A stretch of DNA of 64,000 nucleotides from Alphaproteobacteria bacterium (GCA_964291285.2 OZ219787.1:64001-128000); one strand, 5' to 3'. Positions 28,144 to 42,350 are shown, counted from the first letter of the stretch. The notes: generated from the letters alone by a model not told the origin. Translations and numbers: made by a program.

Positions 28144-31350
<3,207 letters not shown>

Positions 31351-31462
31351 TACGCCGCGGCTCTGCGCGCTCCCGGGACAAATCTTGCGCGCTCGCGGCG
31401 GAGCATCTCGTACGGACTCATGTGGTGCAGGTTCCTGGCCCGGATGAACGCTTTGACGACCG

Positions 31463-33199
31463 TCACGGTCCAAACGGTCTGTATTCGATCAAGGCGGACC
31501 GGCCGAGGATGTCCACGATGGTGATCGACAATTCCGAGCCATGGGCGTCCGTCAGCCGTATCGGTTTGCCGGGCCGAAACGGCACGGGTTGCGGACGCCC
31601 CTCGTCGATGGCGATGTTGTCGGCATACAGATACGTCCGGTCAGAAGTATCGCGTATCGGGTTCAGCCGTCCGTGCAGGCCAGGAAGGTGTCCCGTGCTC
31701 TGAGAGAAAATCGCGGCACCACCGGATTCGAGCGGTTCGAGTTCGAGCTGCAGGCCGCCCCGATTGGGGGTCCAGGCTCGTTCCAATCCGGCGGCATACC
31801 CCGACCCGGCAGCATAGATCGTCATCGGCAAATTCGTCGTGTAAAGGTCCAGGGCCGCATCGCCGGCCTCGTCAGTCGTCGCCCGGACCCAGGTCTTGTT
31901 GGGAAAGAGCGCAAGAACCTCGATACCGGCGAGGGGCTCACCTCCGCAATGCACCGTGACTGTTGCGTCGGCAGGAACAAGCTCCAGCTTGGCCGCGGGA
32001 ATACGGAGCACCAAGCTCGATTCATCAACCAATCTGTATTCCGGCGGTAAACCGGTGGCCTCCTGGGTTTCCGTGCGGATGATCGACACGCCATCCCCGC
32101 GGCGTTCCATCAGGTACCTGCGACGACCCGACCCTGCCACATTACCGACGGGGATGCGCCCGAACACGGATGCGACCACCTCGTTGCGCGTGGCCTGACT
32201 GGCCTCCATGCCTTCGATGGTCATGCCGTTCGGAAGCTGGCCGGGCGAATCGATCTCCAGACGGTCCTTGAACATGGATAGCCGGATCCTGCGGGAAGAC
32301 ATGGAGTAGTCGCGGTGCGCAACCGCGTTGACCACCGCCTCGAATATGGCAGCTTTGCTGTACTGGAAAACGTCTTCCCGTTCCGGAGTCTTGCGGGCGG
32401 AAACACGCATGTTGCGAACGACGAACCGGACCGCGTCCGCGATCTGTGCGGGGAGCGGTCCGGCGATCTCCTGCGCGTCCAACTGGCCCGAGGCACGATC
32501 CAGTCCGCGATAATGCGTCGCCACGATGGTCGCTTGCGGCAACCAGTCCTGCGGAGAAGGAGTGCAAAGCAGTATGCCGGCCACGGTGGCCCGATCCACG
32601 CCCGCTTCATCCTGCGCCAGCAGGCGAAGATTCAGCAATCCCCGCCGTGGGTCCGCCGCCGCCGCCACGCTGAGCAGCGGCTCCCACAGGCGTTCGCTGA
32701 GTGTCTCGAAACCGGTTTCGGGAACGATCTGCTTGTCGAACCACAGGTAGCGGTTCTGCGCACGATTCTGCGCCAACCTCAGACCTTCGTCCCCGAGCAG
32801 GCGCCGCTTGGTCGCACCGACCCGGACGAATGCCCGCCCGCTCCGTTCATGCAGGGCTTCGCCGCGTGGGACTGCGACCAGCAGGAATGCTCTGCCATCC
32901 AGTTCTCTGTGGTGGACGCCGATGCGCAGCGGCGGCTCGAGGACGTCGGTGCTGACCTCCACAAGCAGGTGGTCCAGTGCCGCCATCCGCTCTCGCGACA
33001 TGCCCTGGATTGTTCCGTCGTCAGACACTCCACAGAGCATTATCCCGCCGTCCGCGTTGCCGAACGCGCCCAGTTCGTCCGCCCAATCGTCTCTGCGTGG
33101 GCTGATCGGTGTGGCGCCACGGAACTCGATCCGCTTGAATTCCCACTGGCTGTCCTCACCCAGGCGGAGTTGGCGGCGGATGTCTTCGTCCCGGATCAT
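31463..33199 (-). CDS. AlbA_2 (Schlafen-like) + HATPase_c_4 (RecG-C-like) protein with a beta-rich C-terminal extension
   Basis: GEDSQWEFK...AFGNADGG...GVSDDG, then [25 protein letters not shown] and ERRGDG. Confidence 0.85.
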
Positions 33200-35773
33200 T
33201 ACCCAACCGCCTTTACAGCACGCTCAGCATCCCGGAGGCGGATTTCGCCGGACATGAGCTTGGGGAGCAGGAGGTCGCGGATAGCGCCAGTGGTCTCGAT
33301 CTGGTGCAGATTGCTCAGGGCGCGTTTCATGATCGGCATCGCCCACAGCTCAAAGGCTTCTGCAACGCTCACCGGTGGCAAGGCTAAATCGACCAGAGCA
33401 AAAGTCTGGCGTGTGATCGTGTCAAAAATCGTGCCGTGCGTCCGGTTCCGCAACTCTTCCACCATCATTCTGACAAGCCAGTATGTGAAGAAGTCACAAT
33501 AGCCGCCGACGCCTCGTATCCCGTAGCAACTCTGATTCATGGCCATCGCCCTGCCGAGACAAGCCAACCTTCCGACAGTGCCCCTTGCGGTAATAACGGT
33601 TGTTCCGGCAGAAAGAACTTTTGCCGCACTGTTTTCAACCCCTGTTTGCGTAATGCTCCTCTCGGTCTCCAAGACGAACATGTCCGAGGAAGATGGCGCA
33701 TCTTTTGCCGTATACCAATAAATTTCGCCATCCCAATAATCTTCGATCGACGTTTTAGGCGTACCTCCACTGTGAATTTCTATTACATCATCCAAAACTG
33801 CTGCCTCCCACCCCTCCGGTATCTCACCGAGTTCGGAGTTGACGAAGCGGTCGGGAAACAGTTCCCACAGTTCGGGGGCGAGGTACGGAGCACGCCCTTC
33901 CATCTTCGCCTTTACCGGCCCGAAATCGACGAACCAGTCCTTGAAGATCGCCCGCGCCATCGCCTCCAGCGTCTCGTTCATGCGCCGGTTCAATGCTATC
34001 TTGTCGTCCAGCGCGCCGAGGATGCCCGCAATCGCCCGTTGCTCGGGGAGAGGGGGCACTGGAACCGGCAGATAACTCAGAGCCTGACCCAAAAAGAGTT
34101 GAGCGGTTTCAAGGGATTGTGATTCAGTTCGGTTATGCATCTGAACGGAGCCACGAATGCCCTGGACCGAAACCGCTCGCCGGGAGTATCGGCGGGACTG
34201 CCCACGATATGCAAGCGATCTGACCGACGCTGAGTGGTCTCTGATCGAGCCCTTCATGCCGTTGCCCTGCCGTATCGGTCGCCCGCGCCAGACCGATCTG
34301 CGCGAGGTCGTAAATGCGGTGCTGTATATGGCCACGACCGGTTGTCAGTGGCGCCAGCTGCCGAAGGACTTTCCGCCGGTCTCGACGGTGCAGCGCTATT
34401 TCTACGAGTGGCGCGACAACAGGCTGTGGCAGACGATCCGGTTCCACCTGGCCGTGCAGGCGCGCGAACGCGAGGGGCGCGAGGCCCAGCCGAGCGCGGG
34501 CGTGATCGACAGCCAGACGGTGAAAACCACGGAGGCAGGCGGGGTTAGCGGCTATGACGCCGGCAAGAAGGTCAAAGGGCGCAAGCGCCACGCTGTCGTC
34601 GACACCATCGGCATGCTCTTCGGCCTCGTCGTACATGCCGCCGACGTTCAGGACCGCGACGGCGCCCCGGCCGTGCTGAAATCCATCCGCCACGCCTGCC
34701 CCTGGCTGCGTCATCTGTTCGCCGATGGCGGATATGCCGGGCCGAAACTGCGCGGCGCCCTCGACAGGATCGGCAAGTGGACGCTCGAAATCGTCAAACG
34801 CTCCGACACCGCCAACGGCTTCGAAGTCCTCCCCGGACGATGGGTCGTCGAACGCACCTTCGCATGGCTCGGGCGCTGCCGCAGGCTGGCAAAAGACTGG
34901 GAAAAATCCATCGCCTCAAGCGAAGCATGGATCAACATCGCCCATATCCGGCTCACAACACGCCGACTCGCAAGGCCTTGAAAAACTTCAGCGAGTTTCG
35001 AGTCAGGCTCTCAGGGAATCGACAGGCACTCGCTGACGCCCGGAAGTGCCGGTCATTTGATCCACGGCGTAGCTTCTCACCCCCTCCCATTGAGTTAGGT
35101 AGTAGGCGTACTCGGAATCCGTGACGCCCGCGCGTCCGCGGATAACGATGAACTCGGTCGAGCCATGCGCGCACTCTGCCGCCCGGTCTGTGCAATAACG
35201 GGCAATCTTGCCATTCTCCAAGCACGGCGTAATGCGCGCCATGAGCGTGTCGCCATCTTGGAAGCGCGACCCGCCGCCGGAATAGGCGCGCCGGTCAATC
35301 GCATGTACGCACCGGGAACCGGCAGTGACCGCAGCCATATCAACGAACGGATACGCCATTCCGCGTTCAAGACGCACTGCCGGGTTGACAACGACTGCTT
35401 CGGTAAACGGCATACGCCGCCACTTTTCATCTACAGAGAGCCTCCTTCGCCTGGTGTCATCAATGTCTGCCAGCACCGCATGGTTCCGCTCAATCTCCCG
35501 ATGAAATCGCTCCGGCAGGCGCGCCCAGTCGCGGGCCTCGACCAAGAAGGGAATGTACGATTCCCGCACCGCCTCCTCGAAGCCCGCCATGTTGCCCACC
35601 GGAATTTCCTTCAATCCCGGCCCGCGCAGCACCAGATCGAGATCGCTGCCGTCATGGCTGCGCCCGTTGACGCGGCTGCCATAGGCCCACACCTCGACAT
35701 CGGGCAAATGCTCCCGCAACAGTGCGTCCAGCGCCTCGCGGTGCTTCGGCTGGAGATGCAGCCGGTCAGTCAT
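33199..35773 (-). pseudogene. hsdS: MNT nucleotidyltransferase-HsdS fusion (546 aa reconstructed), interrupted by IS5
   Basis: N-terminal GSRVNGRSHDGSDLD, then TRD1, PPLPEQRAIA..L..LDDKI, GEIPEGW, TRD2 and RDLLLPKLMSGE. The frame is restored on removing 34077-35010. Confidence 0.9.
34080..35010 (+). mobile_element. IS5-family (IS1031-like) element; transposase 34157-34981
   Basis: YASDLTDAEW, IDSQTVK, ADGGY and RWVVERTFAW. TIR GAGCCTGAC with a 3-bp TSD TCA. Confidence 0.95.
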
Positions 35774-36191
35774 CGGGCGTCGCCTCGATCATGTCCGCCA
35801 GCGCCCGGGCATCGGCGATAAAGTCGGGCAACAGCTTGAGCGTGGCCTCGGCGAAGCCTGCGCCGTAGTCGTGCGCGGTATCGTTGCGGTTGTCGCGATA
35901 GCCGAACCAGCGTTCCGCTGCGTCGGCTTCGATCAGTCCGTGCCGGGCGGCGTGGCGGAACAGGTCCTTGAAGGCAAACCGGTCGGCCTGTCTGTTGCTC
36001 GCGAAGAAAGCGGCAAGCCGCTTGCGCAACAGTTTGCCGCTCTGCTCCAGCACCAGCTCGAACTCCTTCACGCAGGCAGCGCGATAGATGTCATACATGA
36101 AATCGTCCGCCGCGCGATGCTTGTCGATCTCACCGAAAGCTGTCTCCAGCGTTCCGATGCAGCGCCGCAGGAAGGTGGTATCGATGCTCAT
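35766..36191 (-). CDS. HEPN-domain toxin (HI0074/HepT-like)
   Basis: RNDTAHDY matches RX4HXY; also KEFELVLE and FKDLFRHAA. 8-bp overlap with the MNT start. Confidence 0.88.
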   Translation of the reverse strand: MSIDTTFLRRCIGTLETAFGEIDKHRAADDFMYDIYRAACVKEFELVLEQSGKLLRKRLAAFFASNRQADRFAFKDLFRHAARHGLIEADAAERWFGYRDNRNDTAHDYGAGFAEATLKLLPDFIADARALADMIEATPDD

Positions 36192-36235
36192 GTCCCGCTG
36201 CTCCGTCCCCGGTGCGCAGACCCGTTGCGGCTCAT

Positions 36236-36748
36236 TCATGAGCGGCAGGCCGATTTGTCGATCAATTTCGGCAAGATTATGAGCCTCAGCAACCGTTGTA
36301 TGACACAGGCGTGCGCCATGTTGCCCACCGGAATTTCCTTCAATCCCGGCCCGCGCAGCACCAGATCGAGATCGCTGCCGTCATGGCTGCGCCCGTTGAC
36401 GCGGCTGCCATAGGCCCACACCTCGACATCGGGCAGATGCTCCCGCAACAGTGCCTCAAGCGCCTTGCGGTGCTTCGGCTGGAGATGCAGCCGGTCAGTC
36501 ATCCGGCGCCGCCTCGATCATGTCCGCCAGCGCCCGGGCATCGGCGATAAAGTCGGGCAGCAGCCTCAACGTGGCCTCGGCGAAGCCTTTCCCGTTGTCA
36601 TGGGCGGTATCGTTATCGACAATCCCTCGCAGGTCATGGCAGGTGTAAGGCCCAGGCTGTCGGGGAACAGCCTTCACCGGAAGGCGCCGCGCGCCTTGGT
36701 GTACCGACATGTTTCCCAACGCATGCAGAGGATGGGAAGAGATCATCG

Positions 36749-36752
<4 letters not shown>
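36236..36752 (-). pseudogene. Truncated second HEPN(3')/MNT(5') cassette
   Basis: About 36315-36615 is a near-identical direct repeat of 35586-35886. Confidence 0.85.
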
Positions 36753-38287
<1,535 letters not shown>

Positions 38288-38529
38288 ATAGTCTGAATCC
38301 TTGGCCGCCAACGCGGATACAGTTTGCCGACTCGGCTCTACGAATACCACTGCATACTTGGCCGACACGGTTCGGGCGGGGAAGGATCCCGTAGATCGCG
38401 GTGCCACCATTCCAGCGTCGCCGACGCTGCCCAACAGATCAATATGATAGCGCGTCACGGGGTACAGGATGCGCCGCCCGAGCGACAGGCACTGAGAGCA
38501 CGGTCAAAACCAGTCCAAGGCCGGGCGTC

Positions 38530-38709
38530 GGGTCGACGCGTCCGGGGCGCAGCCGGTTGACATCATCCGCCTGTTGCTGCCCACCGGCTGCCGCAAGGGT
38601 GAGATCGTCTGCCTTCACCGGGAAGAAGTGAAGGGCGACCGGCTCGAACTCGCCGATAGCAAGACCGGGCTGAAAACCGCCCTGCTGAATGCCGAGGGGC
38701 AGACGTAAA
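38530..38709 (+). pseudogene. Tyrosine recombinase B internal fragment
   Basis: DIIRLLLPTGCRKGEIVCLHREEVKGDRLELADSKTG matches 16242-17465. Confidence 0.8.
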
Positions 38710-38737
38710 AGTCTCCGACTGAGCGGAAGACAGCGCT

Positions 38738-39166
38738 CTACTTACGCCAACTCCCTGACCATAGACCACGCCATATTCGTACGATCCGTGATCGAAGAGC
38801 CCGACGGCTCCGTGTTGAGTCCAGCAAACGGGCCCGCTCGCCGTCGACATACTCCGAATGACGACTTGGATCGATCCCCTCCAACCAAATCACCGCGTTA
38901 TCCCGTATCACGTAGTGGCTGCCGCAGCCGGAATTGGCCCACACGGATCCACCCGTAGGACCGTCGAGCGAGACCGACTTCCCATCGAAGTGAACGTGCC
39001 ATCGACTGGGGTGGAGGGACAGCACCGTCAGATCGCCGCATCCGCAAGGGCAGCGCAGGTTGACAGTCCGATGTTTGTGGCTGATCCAAAGCTCGCCGGT
39101 TTTGATTTGGTCGAACTTGGGCAGCACCTCTACGAAGACAGGGCAGAGTTTCACGGGCATTCTCAC
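38738..39166 (-). CDS. DUF6527-family protein
   Basis: GELWIS...CPCGCG...L.L.P..W...DG..VSL...SV...GC.SHYVIR.N.V.W. Confidence 0.8.
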   Translation of the reverse strand: MRMPVKLCPVFVEVLPKFDQIKTGELWISHKHRTVNLRCPCGCGDLTVLSLHPSRWHVHFDGKSVSLDGPTGGSVWANSGCGSHYVIRDNAVIWLEGIDPSRHSEYVDGERARLLDSTRSRRALRSRIVRIWRGLWSGSWRK

Positions 39167-40365
39167 CGCGAGTCATTCGCTCTGACACTGACAATGCGCG
39201 GGGTTTCGAGTCGGAATTTATAGAGGAACGAAGCCGACTCCGACACATACTGCTCCGTGCGGCGCCGCCACTCCATCACGGCGAGCGACGCCGCCAACGC
39301 GTTCACTTCCGGTAACTGGACGTTGTGATAGCCGGGCACACTGCCCTCGATTCTAGCGTTCGGTATGGCCTCCTTCCATGCCTCAGACCCAGCGGCATAG
39401 GCGCTTGTCGTCACGGCGCCTCTAACAGCGCAGTCTTCCAGCGCTATGCTCACGCCCGAATCTATAAACGGAACCCTCGTCTCAGAGAGTGCGCAGTAGA
39501 CGGCATCCTGACGCGACGAATCGCCGTTGGTCAGCTGGTCGATACACACGAATGCATAGTCGATGGGGTGTGCCGACAGAAACTTGCCGAAAATTGACGG
39601 ACTGTCTATCCGGACAGCGTGCGCGTGGATGCCTTCCCGGAGAGGTGTATACTTGGAGAAGTAGTAGTCTACTTTGCGCAAATGTTCCTTTTTGCACAAC
39701 TCAACCTCCTCGGCTGTAGGTGCACCGGGCGCACGCATCAAATTGTGCCAGTTAACGCCGTCTGAATCCAGTAGATGAATTTCCTTCACGGGCGTTTTTG
39801 CGACAAGATCGAGGACGTAGGCGCCTGTTCCGCCCAGACCAATGATCGCAATCCGTTGACTACGGATGCGATCCTGAACCGGCCTCAACGCCGCTCGTGC
39901 CTCGAACGTGTTGGGTATCTTGAAAGGCTCCTGCTTCGCTAGAGAAGCGGTTTCGGAGTAACCGGCCTCCGACACGGCCCCGACGATCTGCTTCGCGTAG
40001 CGGTGAATCAAGTCATCCACCGACCCATCCTCCTCCGGACTGCCTTGCCCACCTTTCTTGATGGAAATGATCGACCAAGTCTTTCCATCGCCGGCGATGT
40101 AGTTCTCGATCGGGGTTCCATCCGCGTGGTACACGCGCCCGTCGAGTTCTTCGTCAGTGATGATCCGCACCGCATGGATCGCGTCGCCTATCTGATCATT
40201 CGGTTTCCCGTTCGCACGGTCGTACGACTTCTCTATAGTGCAAGTGCCAACGCCCCTGTCTGCAAGGAGACAAGGCACCCCCACGGCCCGGACGACATCG
40301 GAATCGACTCTGATGCTAAACCCGGCCTGCTCACCGAACGCTTTGAGGCGATTCCTACGAGACAT
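39163..40365 (-). CDS. ThiF/E1-like adenylyltransferase with an N-terminal extra domain (DUF6791-like)
   Basis: IAIIGLGGTG.YVLD.VAKTPV.EIHL.D.D...HN..RAPG, FVCID and Q..E.NAL.A. The start overlaps the upstream Ubl stop. Confidence 0.85.
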   Translation of the reverse strand: MSRRNRLKAFGEQAGFSIRVDSDVVRAVGVPCLLADRGVGTCTIEKSYDRANGKPNDQIGDAIHAVRIITDEELDGRVYHADGTPIENYIAGDGKTWSIISIKKGGQGSPEEDGSVDDLIHRYAKQIVGAVSEAGYSETASLAKQEPFKIPNTFEARAALRPVQDRIRSQRIAIIGLGGTGAYVLDLVAKTPVKEIHLLDSDGVNWHNLMRAPGAPTAEEVELCKKEHLRKVDYYFSKYTPLREGIHAHAVRIDSPSIFGKFLSAHPIDYAFVCIDQLTNGDSSRQDAVYCALSETRVPFIDSGVSIALEDCAVRGAVTTSAYAAGSEAWKEAIPNARIEGSVPGYHNVQLPEVNALAASLAVMEWRRRTEQYVSESASFLYKFRLETPRIVSVRANDSR

Positions 40366-40603
40366 GCTCGGGGTCGACCGAAAAGCTTGTGCCGTCCTTG
40401 ACTTTAACATCCTTGCCCGGCAAGAGAACACCGTCCTCGTCCTTGAAATCGTCTTTGTAGTCGATGCCGGGTGTACCGATGATGTGCTTGTTCTCTGCCT
40501 TGTGCAGCTTGTTCCAGATCTTTACGACCTCGGCATAGTTAACAATATGGCCGGGGACTTTGTACACTCGACCGCTCACGTAGATCTCCGTGTCGCCATT
40601 CAT
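40355..40603 (-). CDS. Ubiquitin-like (multiubiquitin-domain) protein, 82 aa
   Basis: IYVSGR...VNYAEVV...Y...G.L.PG..VKVKDG.SF.V beta-grasp pattern; first gene before ThiF. Confidence 0.7.
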   Translation of the reverse strand: MNGDTEIYVSGRVYKVPGHIVNYAEVVKIWNKLHKAENKHIIGTPGIDYKDDFKDEDGVLLPGKDVKVKDGTSFSVDPEHVS

Positions 40604-41030
40604 CGTTTTACTTCTCCGATTGTTGGAGGTTGAAGGGAATTCGAACCACTCGGCCCAATTGTACATCATGGCAACCCGATGTTCGTCGAAGCACGGGTGG
40701 GTCTTGGCGCTCCGCGCTTCCCGGCGCCATAATCTCCGACCTCAATCCGGGCTCGCACGGCATGATCTCCGTGTAACAGCAATGCGCCTCTGCCGTACGA
40801 ACTCCGCCGCCCCTTCGGTCAGATCCAGGGTCCTCCGAAGGCCAACGAATCTCGTCACTGCATCGCCGCCCTCGATACCAGTGTATTGTTGGGCAGCCTG
40901 ATGGCGCGACGGTCCGACCCACCTTGTCACAGGTGCCGCGGTGATCTATCGTGTATGCCCATGCAGTCCACGGGCAGATAGCCTTACGCGGTGCTGACGA
41001 GATCCATTGATGCATGCGTCTCACTGAGAT

Positions 41031-41084: not shown

Positions 41085-41468
41085 ATGTCGTTCGGCTACA
41101 CGCTGAGGAGGTTCCGGGAAGCCCGTGGTCTGAGCTTACGCGAGTTCGGCAAGCTCTGCGGAATCGACCACGCGTACATCCACCGGCTCGAACGGGAGGA
41201 AAAGACGGCTCCCTCCGAGCAAGTGGTCGACACCTTCGTCCGCACCTTGAAGCTCAACTCTCGAAGGGCGCGCCTGCTGCGCCTGCTGGTCGGGAAGACG
41301 ATCAACCGTACCCTCATCGACGTGTTCATCGAAGACGAGCAGCGACCGCTGGACCTACTAGAGCCTGCTCACCAGATGAGCTTCCGGGGAACGCGCCCTG
41401 AAGCCAAGGACGACTGGCGCCGGCATGTCGATCGTTTGGCTCGCCTGTTCGATGAAGACGACGAATGA
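41085..41468 (+). CDS. XRE-family HTH regulator (CapH-like)
   Basis: FGYTLRRFREARGLSLREFG..GIDHAYIHRLE. Confidence 0.88.
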   Translation: MSFGYTLRRFREARGLSLREFGKLCGIDHAYIHRLEREEKTAPSEQVVDTFVRTLKLNSRRARLLRLLVGKTINRTLIDVFIEDEQRPLDLLEPAHQMSFRGTRPEAKDDWRRHVDRLARLFDEDDE

Positions 41469-42350
41469 ATGGACGAGTTCCCGACGATTCTCAGTGCTCG
41501 CCAGTTCCTTCGGAACGCTGGCAACGACTCTGTGCCCGTCGACGTCGGGCGCTTGGCTGCGGCAGCCAACGCGAAGATCAAGGTCGCTTACGATCTCGCC
41601 GACGATGAATCTGGCCAGACCACCCGGTTCAAAGGAACACACGTCATCATCGTCAACGGCAATCACACGGAGGAGCGGCAGCGCTTCACCGTGCTTCATG
41701 AAATCGCCCACATCGTTCTTGGACTGCCTTCCCAGCACCACGGCTCGACGCTCAAGACCGACGTGCTTCTCCGGTACGGACGGCGACCCGAGGAAGAAGT
41801 GCTTTGTGATGTTTTCGCTGCCGAGTGCCTGCTTCCTTACCACCCGTTTGCCGAACAAGTCTCCGACTCGGAAATCTCCCTGAATGCCGTGAAGTCGCTT
41901 GCCCGAGAATACAAGGCATCATTGACCACGACGGGATCGAGATTCGCTCTGAATGCGAGAGAGCCCTGTGCGTTCGTCCTCAGCGAGAACGGGCGGATCC
42001 GTTATGTGTCCCGGTCGAAATACCTGAATGAGCTGAAGGGATGGATCAATTTCAACGCCTCTGTGCCGCAAGGCAGCGTCGCGCAGCGCCTGATCGAGGG
42101 TGGTCCGAAGATCGAGGATTACGACGAACTTCCAACAGATGTCTGGTTCGACGGAGGCGTCAGGAACCGACCATTGATTGCTGAGGAAGCCATCCTCCTG
42201 CGGGACTGGAATCAATGTCTTTCACTCATCTGGTTTGACGAGCGCCTGACACCAGTCCGGGAGCGCCGGGACGAGGATGAAAAGGTTGAGCCTTTGCTCC
42301 AACAGCTTGACGGTACACTACCGTGGCCATCCAGAAGCCGCCGTGGATAG
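41469..42350 (+). CDS. ImmA/IrrE-family metallopeptidase (CapP-like)
   Basis: RQRFTVLHEIAH (HExxH) and E..CD.FAAECLLP, with a GAF-like C-terminal region. Abuts the HTH gene. Confidence 0.88.
   Translation: MDEFPTILSARQFLRNAGNDSVPVDVGRLAAAANAKIKVAYDLADDESGQTTRFKGTHVIIVNGNHTEERQRFTVLHEIAHIVLGLPSQHHGSTLKTDVLLRYGRRPEEEVLCDVFAAECLLPYHPFAEQVSDSEISLNAVKSLAREYKASLTTTGSRFALNAREPCAFVLSENGRIRYVSRSKYLNELKGWINFNASVPQGSVAQRLIEGGPKIEDYDELPTDVWFDGGVRNRPLIAEEAILLRDWNQCLSLIWFDERLTPVRERRDEDEKVEPLLQQLDGTLPWPSRSRRG

Follow-up and report, generated by a model that had tools for sequence, protein, structure and literature searches.

How might a toxin-antitoxin (TA) pair be wired into a restriction enzyme, and what would such a connection be good for? 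This question is raised by a stretch of 64,000 nucleotides from an Alphaproteobacteria bacterium (GCA_964291285.2, OZ219787.1:64001-128000), called the window here and used for all coordinates. It contains a type I restriction-modification (R-M) operon composed of hsdM, hsdS, an accessory Schlafen-like gene and hsdR, all on the minus strand, and a cassette of the HI0074/HI0073 type lies between hsdM and hsdS. In this cassette a small HEPN gene, a candidate ribonuclease (RNase) toxin, is followed by a minimal nucleotidyltransferase (MNT) domain, the putative antitoxin, which forms the N-terminus of the specificity subunit HsdS. The fusion is frequent and occurs in several phyla, alongside a split form. 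We consider it rather probable from our analysis that the cassette serves the R-M system as a built-in addiction module and/or abortive-infection back-up, acting through the antitoxin fused to HsdS.

The HEPN gene (35766..36191, minus strand) encodes a protein of 141 amino acids (aa) that matches the HI0074 or NTase_sub_bind family (PF08780, 2.8e-15), has PF01934 as its only other Pfam match and finds HI0074 as the closest solved sequence (PDB 1jog, 1.2e-11). Its start at MSIDTTF is common to 24 of the 30 rows of the HEPN alignment. The RX4HXY motif, described as intact in an earlier note on this DNA, reads RNDTAHDY (R102-x4-H107-x-Y109), and all 30 rows, including those of a distant lineage, have R102, T105, H107 and Y109. 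The stop of the gene overlaps by 8 bp (35766-35773) with the start of an open reading frame (ORF) that opens with the MNT domain, just as the note had read it. This domain (35465..35773, minus strand; residues 1-103 of the fused protein) is of the HI0073 family (PF01909, 1.1e-5; closest solved sequence HI0073, PDB 1no5, 7.2e-11), and its catalytic residues are G32-S33, D44-x-D46 and E79/D82. G32, S33, R34, S43, D44 and D46 do not vary among the 30 aligned rows, again with the distant lineage counted in. The third acidic position is represented by FLVEARDW, and D82 is found in at least 90% of the 30 rows. Judged by sequence, the pair belongs to the HI0074/HI0073 family and has intact catalytic motifs in both partners.

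As it stands, the MNT::HsdS frame (35773..35003, 256 aa) carries GSRVNGRSHDGSDLD and runs without a stop from the MNT domain through a linker of about ten residues into the first target recognition domain (TRD1) of HsdS (linker and TRD1, 35011..35464, minus strand; TRD1 from about residue 113). It then enters an IS5-family insertion sequence (IS; 34080..35010, 931 bp; PF01609 1.4e-37, PF13340 5.7e-29) by three codons, i.e., two residues and the stop, and ends at 35003. Excising the IS together with one TGA joins ...VPVDSL in frame to SYLPVPVPPLPEQRAI... of the remainder of hsdS (33199..34079, minus strand; 292 aa; PF01420, 6.1e-20), which encodes the central conserved helix, TRD2 and the C-terminal conserved helix. 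The product is the two-TRD MNT::HsdS of 546 aa that had been predicted for the repaired gene. The HsdS architecture of two TRDs and long conserved helices, flanked by hsdM and hsdR and interrupted by the IS in the window, is thereby confirmed, and TRD1 is 100% identical to that of the window in two related genomes (loci L001 and L002).

From the reading frame, MNT::HsdS is treated here as one polypeptide. An internal restart of HsdS was considered and rejected: the AAGGAGG in the linker has its in-frame ATG 28 nt downstream, and the well-spaced ATG at 9 nt is out of frame. No methionine is conserved at the MNT-HsdS junction across TRD types. An assembly or frameshift artefact as the source of the fusion was likewise ruled out, since 31 loci and thousands of protein clusters have the fusion.

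Structure models agree with this domain organization. The AlphaFold model of an intact fused homolog (L010, alignment of 48 rows) reached a mean predicted local distance difference test score (pLDDT) of 91.7 and a predicted template modelling score (pTM) of 0.75. It consists of a compact, separate MNT domain (residues 1-102) followed by a canonical two-TRD HsdS with long helices at residues 258-298 and 463-503, and the linker at residues 101-110 is of low confidence (pLDDT 66). In Foldseek searches, the body of the model matched the solved HsdS chains 7vs4_C, 1yf2, 1ydx and 2y7c, and the N-terminal domain matched HI0073 (1no5_B; TM 0.93, root-mean-square deviation 1.2 A) as well as the Legionella MNT antitoxin and Shewanella MntA. 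When two HEPN chains were modelled with the MNT domain, the score was 0.69 versus 0.14 for the best of three controls, and the score may reflect likeness to similar complexes already solved; this mark was attained by 58 of 80 solved complexes and by 2 of 110 mismatched pairs. Contacts agreed to 100% between runs, and the pLDDT of the partner was at least 85. The predicted interface comprises residues 40-44, next to DxD, and 70-77 of the MNT domain, thus including S43 and D44 of the active-site loop, and residues 73-97 of HEPN, next to the RX4HXY helix.

The possibility raised in the earlier note that the fusion is unique to this assembly can be set aside. Among 80 related loci returned, 77 had an MNT match and were called fused or split by walking along the frame. 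In 31 of the 77, a single open frame of 502-801 aa covers the MNT domain and a complete HsdS; three further loci are fused and truncated, two because the contig ends and L002 because its frame changes after TRD1. The other 43 encode MNT as a separate protein of 104-137 aa, which is cut by a stop in one case (L018). Fused loci occur in seven phyla according to the record annotation (Pseudomonadota, Chloroflexota, Acidobacteriota, Gemmatimonadota, Rhodothermota, Binatota and Latescibacterota); their records are mostly metagenome-assembled genomes, with several sponge-associated taxa among them. A second, intact operon is even present in the same genome on another contig (L089, contig 4, 328000-342000), with the order hsdM, HEPN, MNT::HsdS, DUF4365, an unknown gene and hsdR. 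Its HEPN protein matches PF08780 at 3.6e-21, its MNT::HsdS has 539 aa, and the cassette is only 33-43% identical to that of the window. This operon adjoins the gene of a 1218-aa SIR2_2 protein.

Proteins joining a nucleotidyltransferase to a Methylase_S domain, for which the earlier note had suggested a database search, proved to be numerous. A search of 1.84 billion representatives (50% identity) returned 321 matches at E <=1e-30. By manual count, about 49 of the best 150 representatives match the query over both domains, in proteins mostly of 500-570 aa, and an MNT-type family occurs together with PF01420 in 15 of the 19 representatives scanned. When the MNT domain was searched among proteins of at least 449 aa, 1242 clusters (90% identity) were obtained, with PF01420 (Methylase_S) in 119 of the best 120 listed; the MNT domain of the second lineage added 948 clusters (90% identity), with PF01420 in 118 of the best 120 listed. 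Variants include a tandem MNT-MNT-HsdS and HsdS proteins with a DUF559 (Vsr-like) or GIY-YIG insert (P0004, P0056, P0134, P0316, P0324 and similar). One MNT-HEPN fusion was also seen among the architecture variants. In a phylum sample of 301 genomes, an HI0073-like MNT was detected in 71, and 14 MNT matches in 13 genomes, that of the window included, lie in open frames of at least 430 aa, a criterion of length only. In a protein search of a plasmid collection, 49 records matched the TRD part only, none covered 80% of the query, and no fused form was found.

The loci around these fusions resemble the window in several respects. Neighbouring hsd genes were counted by tblastn with the window proteins (E 1e-5, within 5 kb), which gives lower bounds: an hsdM homolog lies within 5 kb of at least 29 of the 31 fused loci, accompanied by hsdR in at least 18 and present as the only hsd neighbour in 11. 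The 8-bp overlap between the HEPN stop and the MNT start recurs in most related loci, the same MNT precedes many unrelated TRD1 types, and the linkers between MNT and HsdS are short and variable among homologs. In three loci with a damaged toxin gene, the antitoxin motifs have changed as well: L007 and L008 combine a frameshift in HEPN with MNT motifs altered from GS to GN and from DLD to NLD, and L012, which has lost the HEPN motif, reads DLG in place of DLD.

The DNA of the central conserved region of hsdS (33900-34079) is 83-96% identical across phyla (L003, L004, L015, L038, L045, L057 and others), and this identity points to hsdS cassettes having moved horizontally not long ago, apparently between sponge-associated bacteria. 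In contigs from public sequencing runs, either TRD2 (524-616 bases, within 33276-33893) or TRD1 (1414-1490 bases, within 34020-35511) is skipped between conserved flanks; some contigs join the 3' end of MNT to the central region of hsdS, possibly with other letters between. Such contigs are as expected if alternative TRD cassettes are present in co-occurring strains or paralogs.

What does the IS tell us about the state of the system? Its transposase is encoded at 34157-34981 on the plus strand, its terminal inverted repeats are imperfect, and the 3-bp target duplication TGA is found at 34077-34079 and 35011-35013. With 13 copies at 100% identity on four contigs of the genome, the window copy included, the element is recently or currently active. 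The site is empty in the related genomes of L001 and L002, where the flanks of the window abut with exactly 3 bp of overlap, and hsdS homologs are contiguous across the IS position. Contigs from two of four public runs (X1 and X2) join 34075 to 35010 and skip 934 bases, with a shorter side at the joint of 38 letters in X2 and of only 18 in X1. Given these empty sites and IS-free joints, the intact fused allele occurs in nature, and its interruption by the IS is probably polymorphic. Assembly of HsdS with HsdM requires the central helix. Because this helix is missing from the MNT-TRD1 stump of the window, the stump should not assemble with HsdM, and the assembled genome probably has a dead R-M enzyme here, with the frames of HEPN and of the stump staying open.

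Two related hsdS genes are broken as well. In L001 (6233-7191) the orthologous gene is interrupted in TRD2 by a different IS5-family element, the transposase of which is in frame with HsdS, and in L002 the frame changes after TRD1. Hence two different IS elements and one frameshift have disrupted hsdS downstream of MNT in the three loci; the MNT domain is kept in all of them, and HEPN is fully intact in the window and in L002 and has a disturbed start in L001. The position of the IS downstream of MNT had been taken as a sign of an active toxin. It is uninformative in this regard, because MNT makes up only about 18% of the gene and a random insertion would spare it in about 82% of cases; even for all three disruptions together the chance expectation is about 55%.

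A decayed partial duplicate of the cassette, absent from the earlier note, lies between hsdM and the live HEPN gene. A direct repeat of 300 nt (36314-36613) is 95% identical to 35585-35884 and spans parts of two remnants on the minus strand. The HEPN gene remnant (36495..36752) has no Pfam match; its last 40 or so codons are HEPN-like, with 90% identity to HEPN residues 119-157 (numbering of the long ORF) and a ruined motif (DNDTAHDN). The MNT gene remnant (36236..36502) is an 88-aa ORF matching PF01909 (4.6e-7), is 95% identical to the fused MNT over residues 1-64, is unrelated after residue 62 and is devoid of the strand bearing the third acidic residue. Sister loci of a related genome (L001, L002, L021 and L030) contain equivalent remnants, and in L022 and L025 a HEPN remnant is followed by a whole MNT. 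The duplicate may be what is left of an earlier cassette after a new HEPN-MNT::hsdS cassette recombined into it.

The rest of the operon is that of a type I system. The gene hsdM (36749..38458, minus strand; PF02384 1.7e-107, PF12161 8.8e-25) encodes the methyltransferase subunit and has a longest ORF of 569 aa; since homologs in related loci align only from residues 53-71 on (about residue 62), the true start may lie further downstream. Between hsdS and hsdR, a gene of 578 aa (31463..33199, minus strand) combines Schlafen/AlbA_2 and HATPase_c_4 domains (PF04326 6.2e-13, PF13749 4.1e-18), and its start overlaps the hsdS stop. Homologs occur in some related R-M loci (L017, L041 and L045), and the gene is possibly a second RNase-type accessory of the operon. 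The restriction subunit gene hsdR (28144..31473, minus strand; PF11867, PF18766, PF04313) is an intact open frame of 1109 aa. A promoter and terminator scan of 33000-38800 yielded one promoter-like site, on the plus strand, with no excess over shuffled sequence. Just upstream of hsdM (38738-40669, minus strand), genes for a ThiF/E1-like protein (PF00899), a DUF6527 protein and a 104-aa ORF without Pfam match may represent a ubiquitin-like conjugation defence cluster. Further on (41085-42350, plus strand), an HTH_XRE regulator is paired with an ImmA/IrrE-type M78 peptidase, and this pair, together with the other genes here, suggests a defence island.

How, then, could a fused antitoxin serve the R-M system? 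In HepT/MntA of Shewanella and Aphanizomenon, MNT reportedly AMPylates the tyrosine of the HEPN motif and thereby silences the RNase. By analogy with these characterised systems, the MNT domain of the fusion would use ATP to AMPylate Tyr109 in the RX4HXY motif and keep the HEPN RNase silent. Through the fusion, the antitoxin would share its supply, stability and location with HsdS, and HEPN would escape control once HsdS synthesis stops or the subunit is lost; loss of the operon, phage shut-off of host gene expression or an attack on the R-M complex would be suitable triggers. The analogy extends to a Legionella HEPN-MNT system, for which the text consulted describes AMPylation and a binding ratio of MNT to HEPN of 1:4 (PMC11586414); since a monomeric MNT serves a HEPN oligomer there, a single MNT per HsdS is plausible. 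Nucleotidylation of the conserved HEPN tyrosine had been predicted earlier, as stated in the body text of PMC3710099.

Several points weigh against the proposed back-up role. HEPN toxicity, AMPylation and the link to restriction are only predicted for this family, and AMPylation is covalent and catalytic, so that tethering to HsdS alone does not explain how the toxin would be released when R-M is inhibited. The toxin gene comes first, unlike in the characterised HepT/MntA pairs. The fusion is not needed for the association with R-M, because 43 of the 77 loci are unfused and at least 22 of these 43 HEPN/MNT pairs have an hsd gene nearby. An upstream HEPN gene, for which the earlier note had proposed a test, is present in 25 of the 34 fused or fused-truncated loci; in the other nine (L003, L004, L005, L006, L014, L023, L051, L057 and L065) no HEPN gene lies directly upstream, and GS...DxD is kept. 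In these loci the MNT may have another role or act on toxins encoded elsewhere, or HEPN may have been lost recently. By a pattern check, RX4HXY is absent from 4 of the 25 upstream HEPN genes. Finally, fused and split forms are interspersed on the MNT-domain tree, with 18 changes on the best tree of which well-supported branches, given the few columns, force only one; the tree is too poorly resolved to tell a single from a repeated fusion.

These points have to be considered together with the rival explanations. One is that the embedded TA pair stabilises the operon or island and that the fusion only makes the hsdM-hsdS transcription unit indispensable. Type I R-M systems alone exert weak post-segregational killing. 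A need for such stabilisation would fit the mobile, exchanged context indicated by the 83-96% identity of conserved hsdS DNA across phyla and by the TRD swaps between conserved flanks, as well as the three broken hsdS genes, in all of which MNT has been kept and in two of which HEPN is fully intact; a Shewanella HEPN-MNT pair confers plasmid stability (PMC4621449). However, an addiction module works without any fusion, the hsdS part downstream of MNT is left unprotected by it, as the window itself demonstrates, and three disruptions downstream of an N-terminal domain of 18% have, as calculated above, about an even chance of occurring. We take simple addiction as a possibility to be reckoned with, if not a likely one. 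The fusion could also be neutral or nearly so, having arisen by loss of the stop between packed, translationally coupled MNT and hsdS genes with no functional cross-talk. The interspersed states on the tree, the short, variable linkers of low model confidence and the split forms with hsdS directly downstream (L022, L033 and others) are what this idea would lead one to expect. Against it stand two lineages with only 33-43% identity between them, which together comprise more than 2000 clusters and nearly always carry PF01420, the persistence of the fusion over many TRD types and its further elaboration by a second MNT or by DUF559 or GIY-YIG inserts. Such persistence goes beyond usual drift, although a single successful cassette that spread horizontally could have raised the counts, and we regard neutrality as unlikely.

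A more demanding variant of the back-up role would be a guard in the strict sense of PrrC, with HEPN silent only while MNT::HsdS resides in an intact M2S1 or R2M2S1 complex; we find this doubtful. Equally uncertain to us is the trigger that it implies, in which anti-restriction proteins (DNA mimics, Stp-like peptides) or proteolysis would disable the antitoxin and fresh or de-AMPylated HEPN would abort the infection. The antitoxin is physically part of the subunit targeted by anti-restriction proteins, the fusion is conserved across many TRD types and phyla, and hsdM with hsdR, or in 11 further cases hsdM only, lies within 5 kb of the fused loci in the numbers given above. An RNase gene within a type I hsd operon moreover resembles the situation of prrC (PMC3710099, PMC12707154). 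Nevertheless, the dependence of MNT activity on complex assembly has to be assumed throughout, a stable covalent mark would permit a fast trigger only with de-AMPylation or new synthesis, for which extra step no gene was seen, the HEPN family and architecture are unlike PrrC in having no ABC ATPase domain, and nine of the 34 fused loci are toxin-less. These toxin-less loci, which keep the MNT catalytic residues, rather favour a job of MNT within the R-M enzyme itself, such as nucleotidylation of an R-M subunit, of DNA or of a phage protein, with HEPN being an accessory substrate-binding subunit. An older proposal of a 'two-protein nucleotidyltransferase' for HI0073/HI0074, found in the title of PDB entry 1no5 and in that of a cited paper, points in the same direction. 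However, RX4HXY is invariant in 30 aligned HEPN proteins, tyrosine included, as in proven RNase toxins, the MNT motifs decay in three loci with a broken or motif-less HEPN, and the complex model sets the MNT active-site loop against HEPN, so that a role of this kind appears very unlikely.

We thus return to the addiction and/or abortive-infection back-up acting through the fused antitoxin as our preferred reading. Its boldest extension, offered here tentatively, is that the fusion would let a minimal HEPN RNase sense the type I R-M complex itself and act as a widespread guard, based on covalent modification, that is analogous but unrelated to PrrC. AMPylation would then last only as long as MNT::HsdS is made and assembled, and the RNase would be freed by phage shut-off, by anti-restriction proteins or when the specificity subunit is lost. 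As a side effect, the conserved MNT coding region could act as a 5' homology arm for swaps of TRD1 cassettes. HEPN-MNT pairs are among the commonest TA modules, and we know of no natural trigger for them; type I R-M systems, in turn, are the commonest target of phage anti-restriction proteins. An antitoxin placed on the specificity subunit in more than 2000 protein clusters and at least seven phyla offers a concrete and testable physical link between the two. If this link is functional, it would explain the frequent HEPN genes in R-M loci and would identify what triggers a type VII system; otherwise the locus would be a clean case of a recurrent fusion of an antitoxin to a host gene that has spread horizontally, here among sponge-associated bacteria.

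The arrangement is apparently undescribed and combines a type VII-like HEPN/MNT pair with the known theme of HEPN genes in R-M loci. No description of an MNT-HsdS fusion was found in full-text literature searches, with the figures and the full supplement of PMC3710099 lying outside the text covered, and this result matches the earlier note, which knew of no characterised example. In the text portions of that article, Anantharaman et al. (2013, PMC3710099) linked 16 HEPN clades to R-M systems and proposed a second-line, suicidal, PrrC-like back-up function for them. As far as this text goes, nucleases, helicases and ATPases are the fusion partners of HEPN domains, methylases are not, no link to HsdS is given in the row for HEPN-M (PF08780), and an MNT-HsdS fusion is not mentioned.

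With the type VII HepT/MntA systems of Shewanella oneidensis, Aphanizomenon and Legionella pneumophila, the cassette shares a small RX4HXY HEPN protein beside a minimal GSX10DXD nucleotidyltransferase and the overlap of the two genes. The fold of the fused MNT matches MntA and the Legionella MNT chains, and the predicted complex sets the MNT active-site loop on HEPN, while the sequence similarity of Shewanella MntA to the window MNT is marginal (E 0.43). Two differences are evident. The toxin gene comes first in the window and in related loci, whereas MNT followed by HEPN is the usual order in the text of PMC3710099, and the antitoxin is the N-terminal domain of HsdS instead of a free protein. 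The closest solved relatives by sequence and fold are HI0073 and HI0074 of Haemophilus influenzae (1no5 and 1jog), which share the RN-T-H-Y motif. Unlike the fused MNT, HI0073 is a free-standing protein of 114 residues, and to our knowledge it has no link to an R-M system.

PrrC is, as far as we know, almost the sole worked example of an RNase guarding a type I R-M system. At the type IC locus EcoprrI, and similarly for RloC, the gene of a HEPN-superfamily RNase likewise lies inside the hsd operon, and silencing of the RNase by the R-M enzyme has been proposed in the part of the literature covered here. PrrC, an anticodon nuclease, is, however, a large ABC-ATPase-HEPN protein that is silenced by non-covalent binding to the R-M enzyme, whereas the cassette in the window encodes a minimal HEPN protein of 141 aa that comes with its own enzyme antitoxin and is linked to R-M by the covalent fusion of this antitoxin to HsdS.

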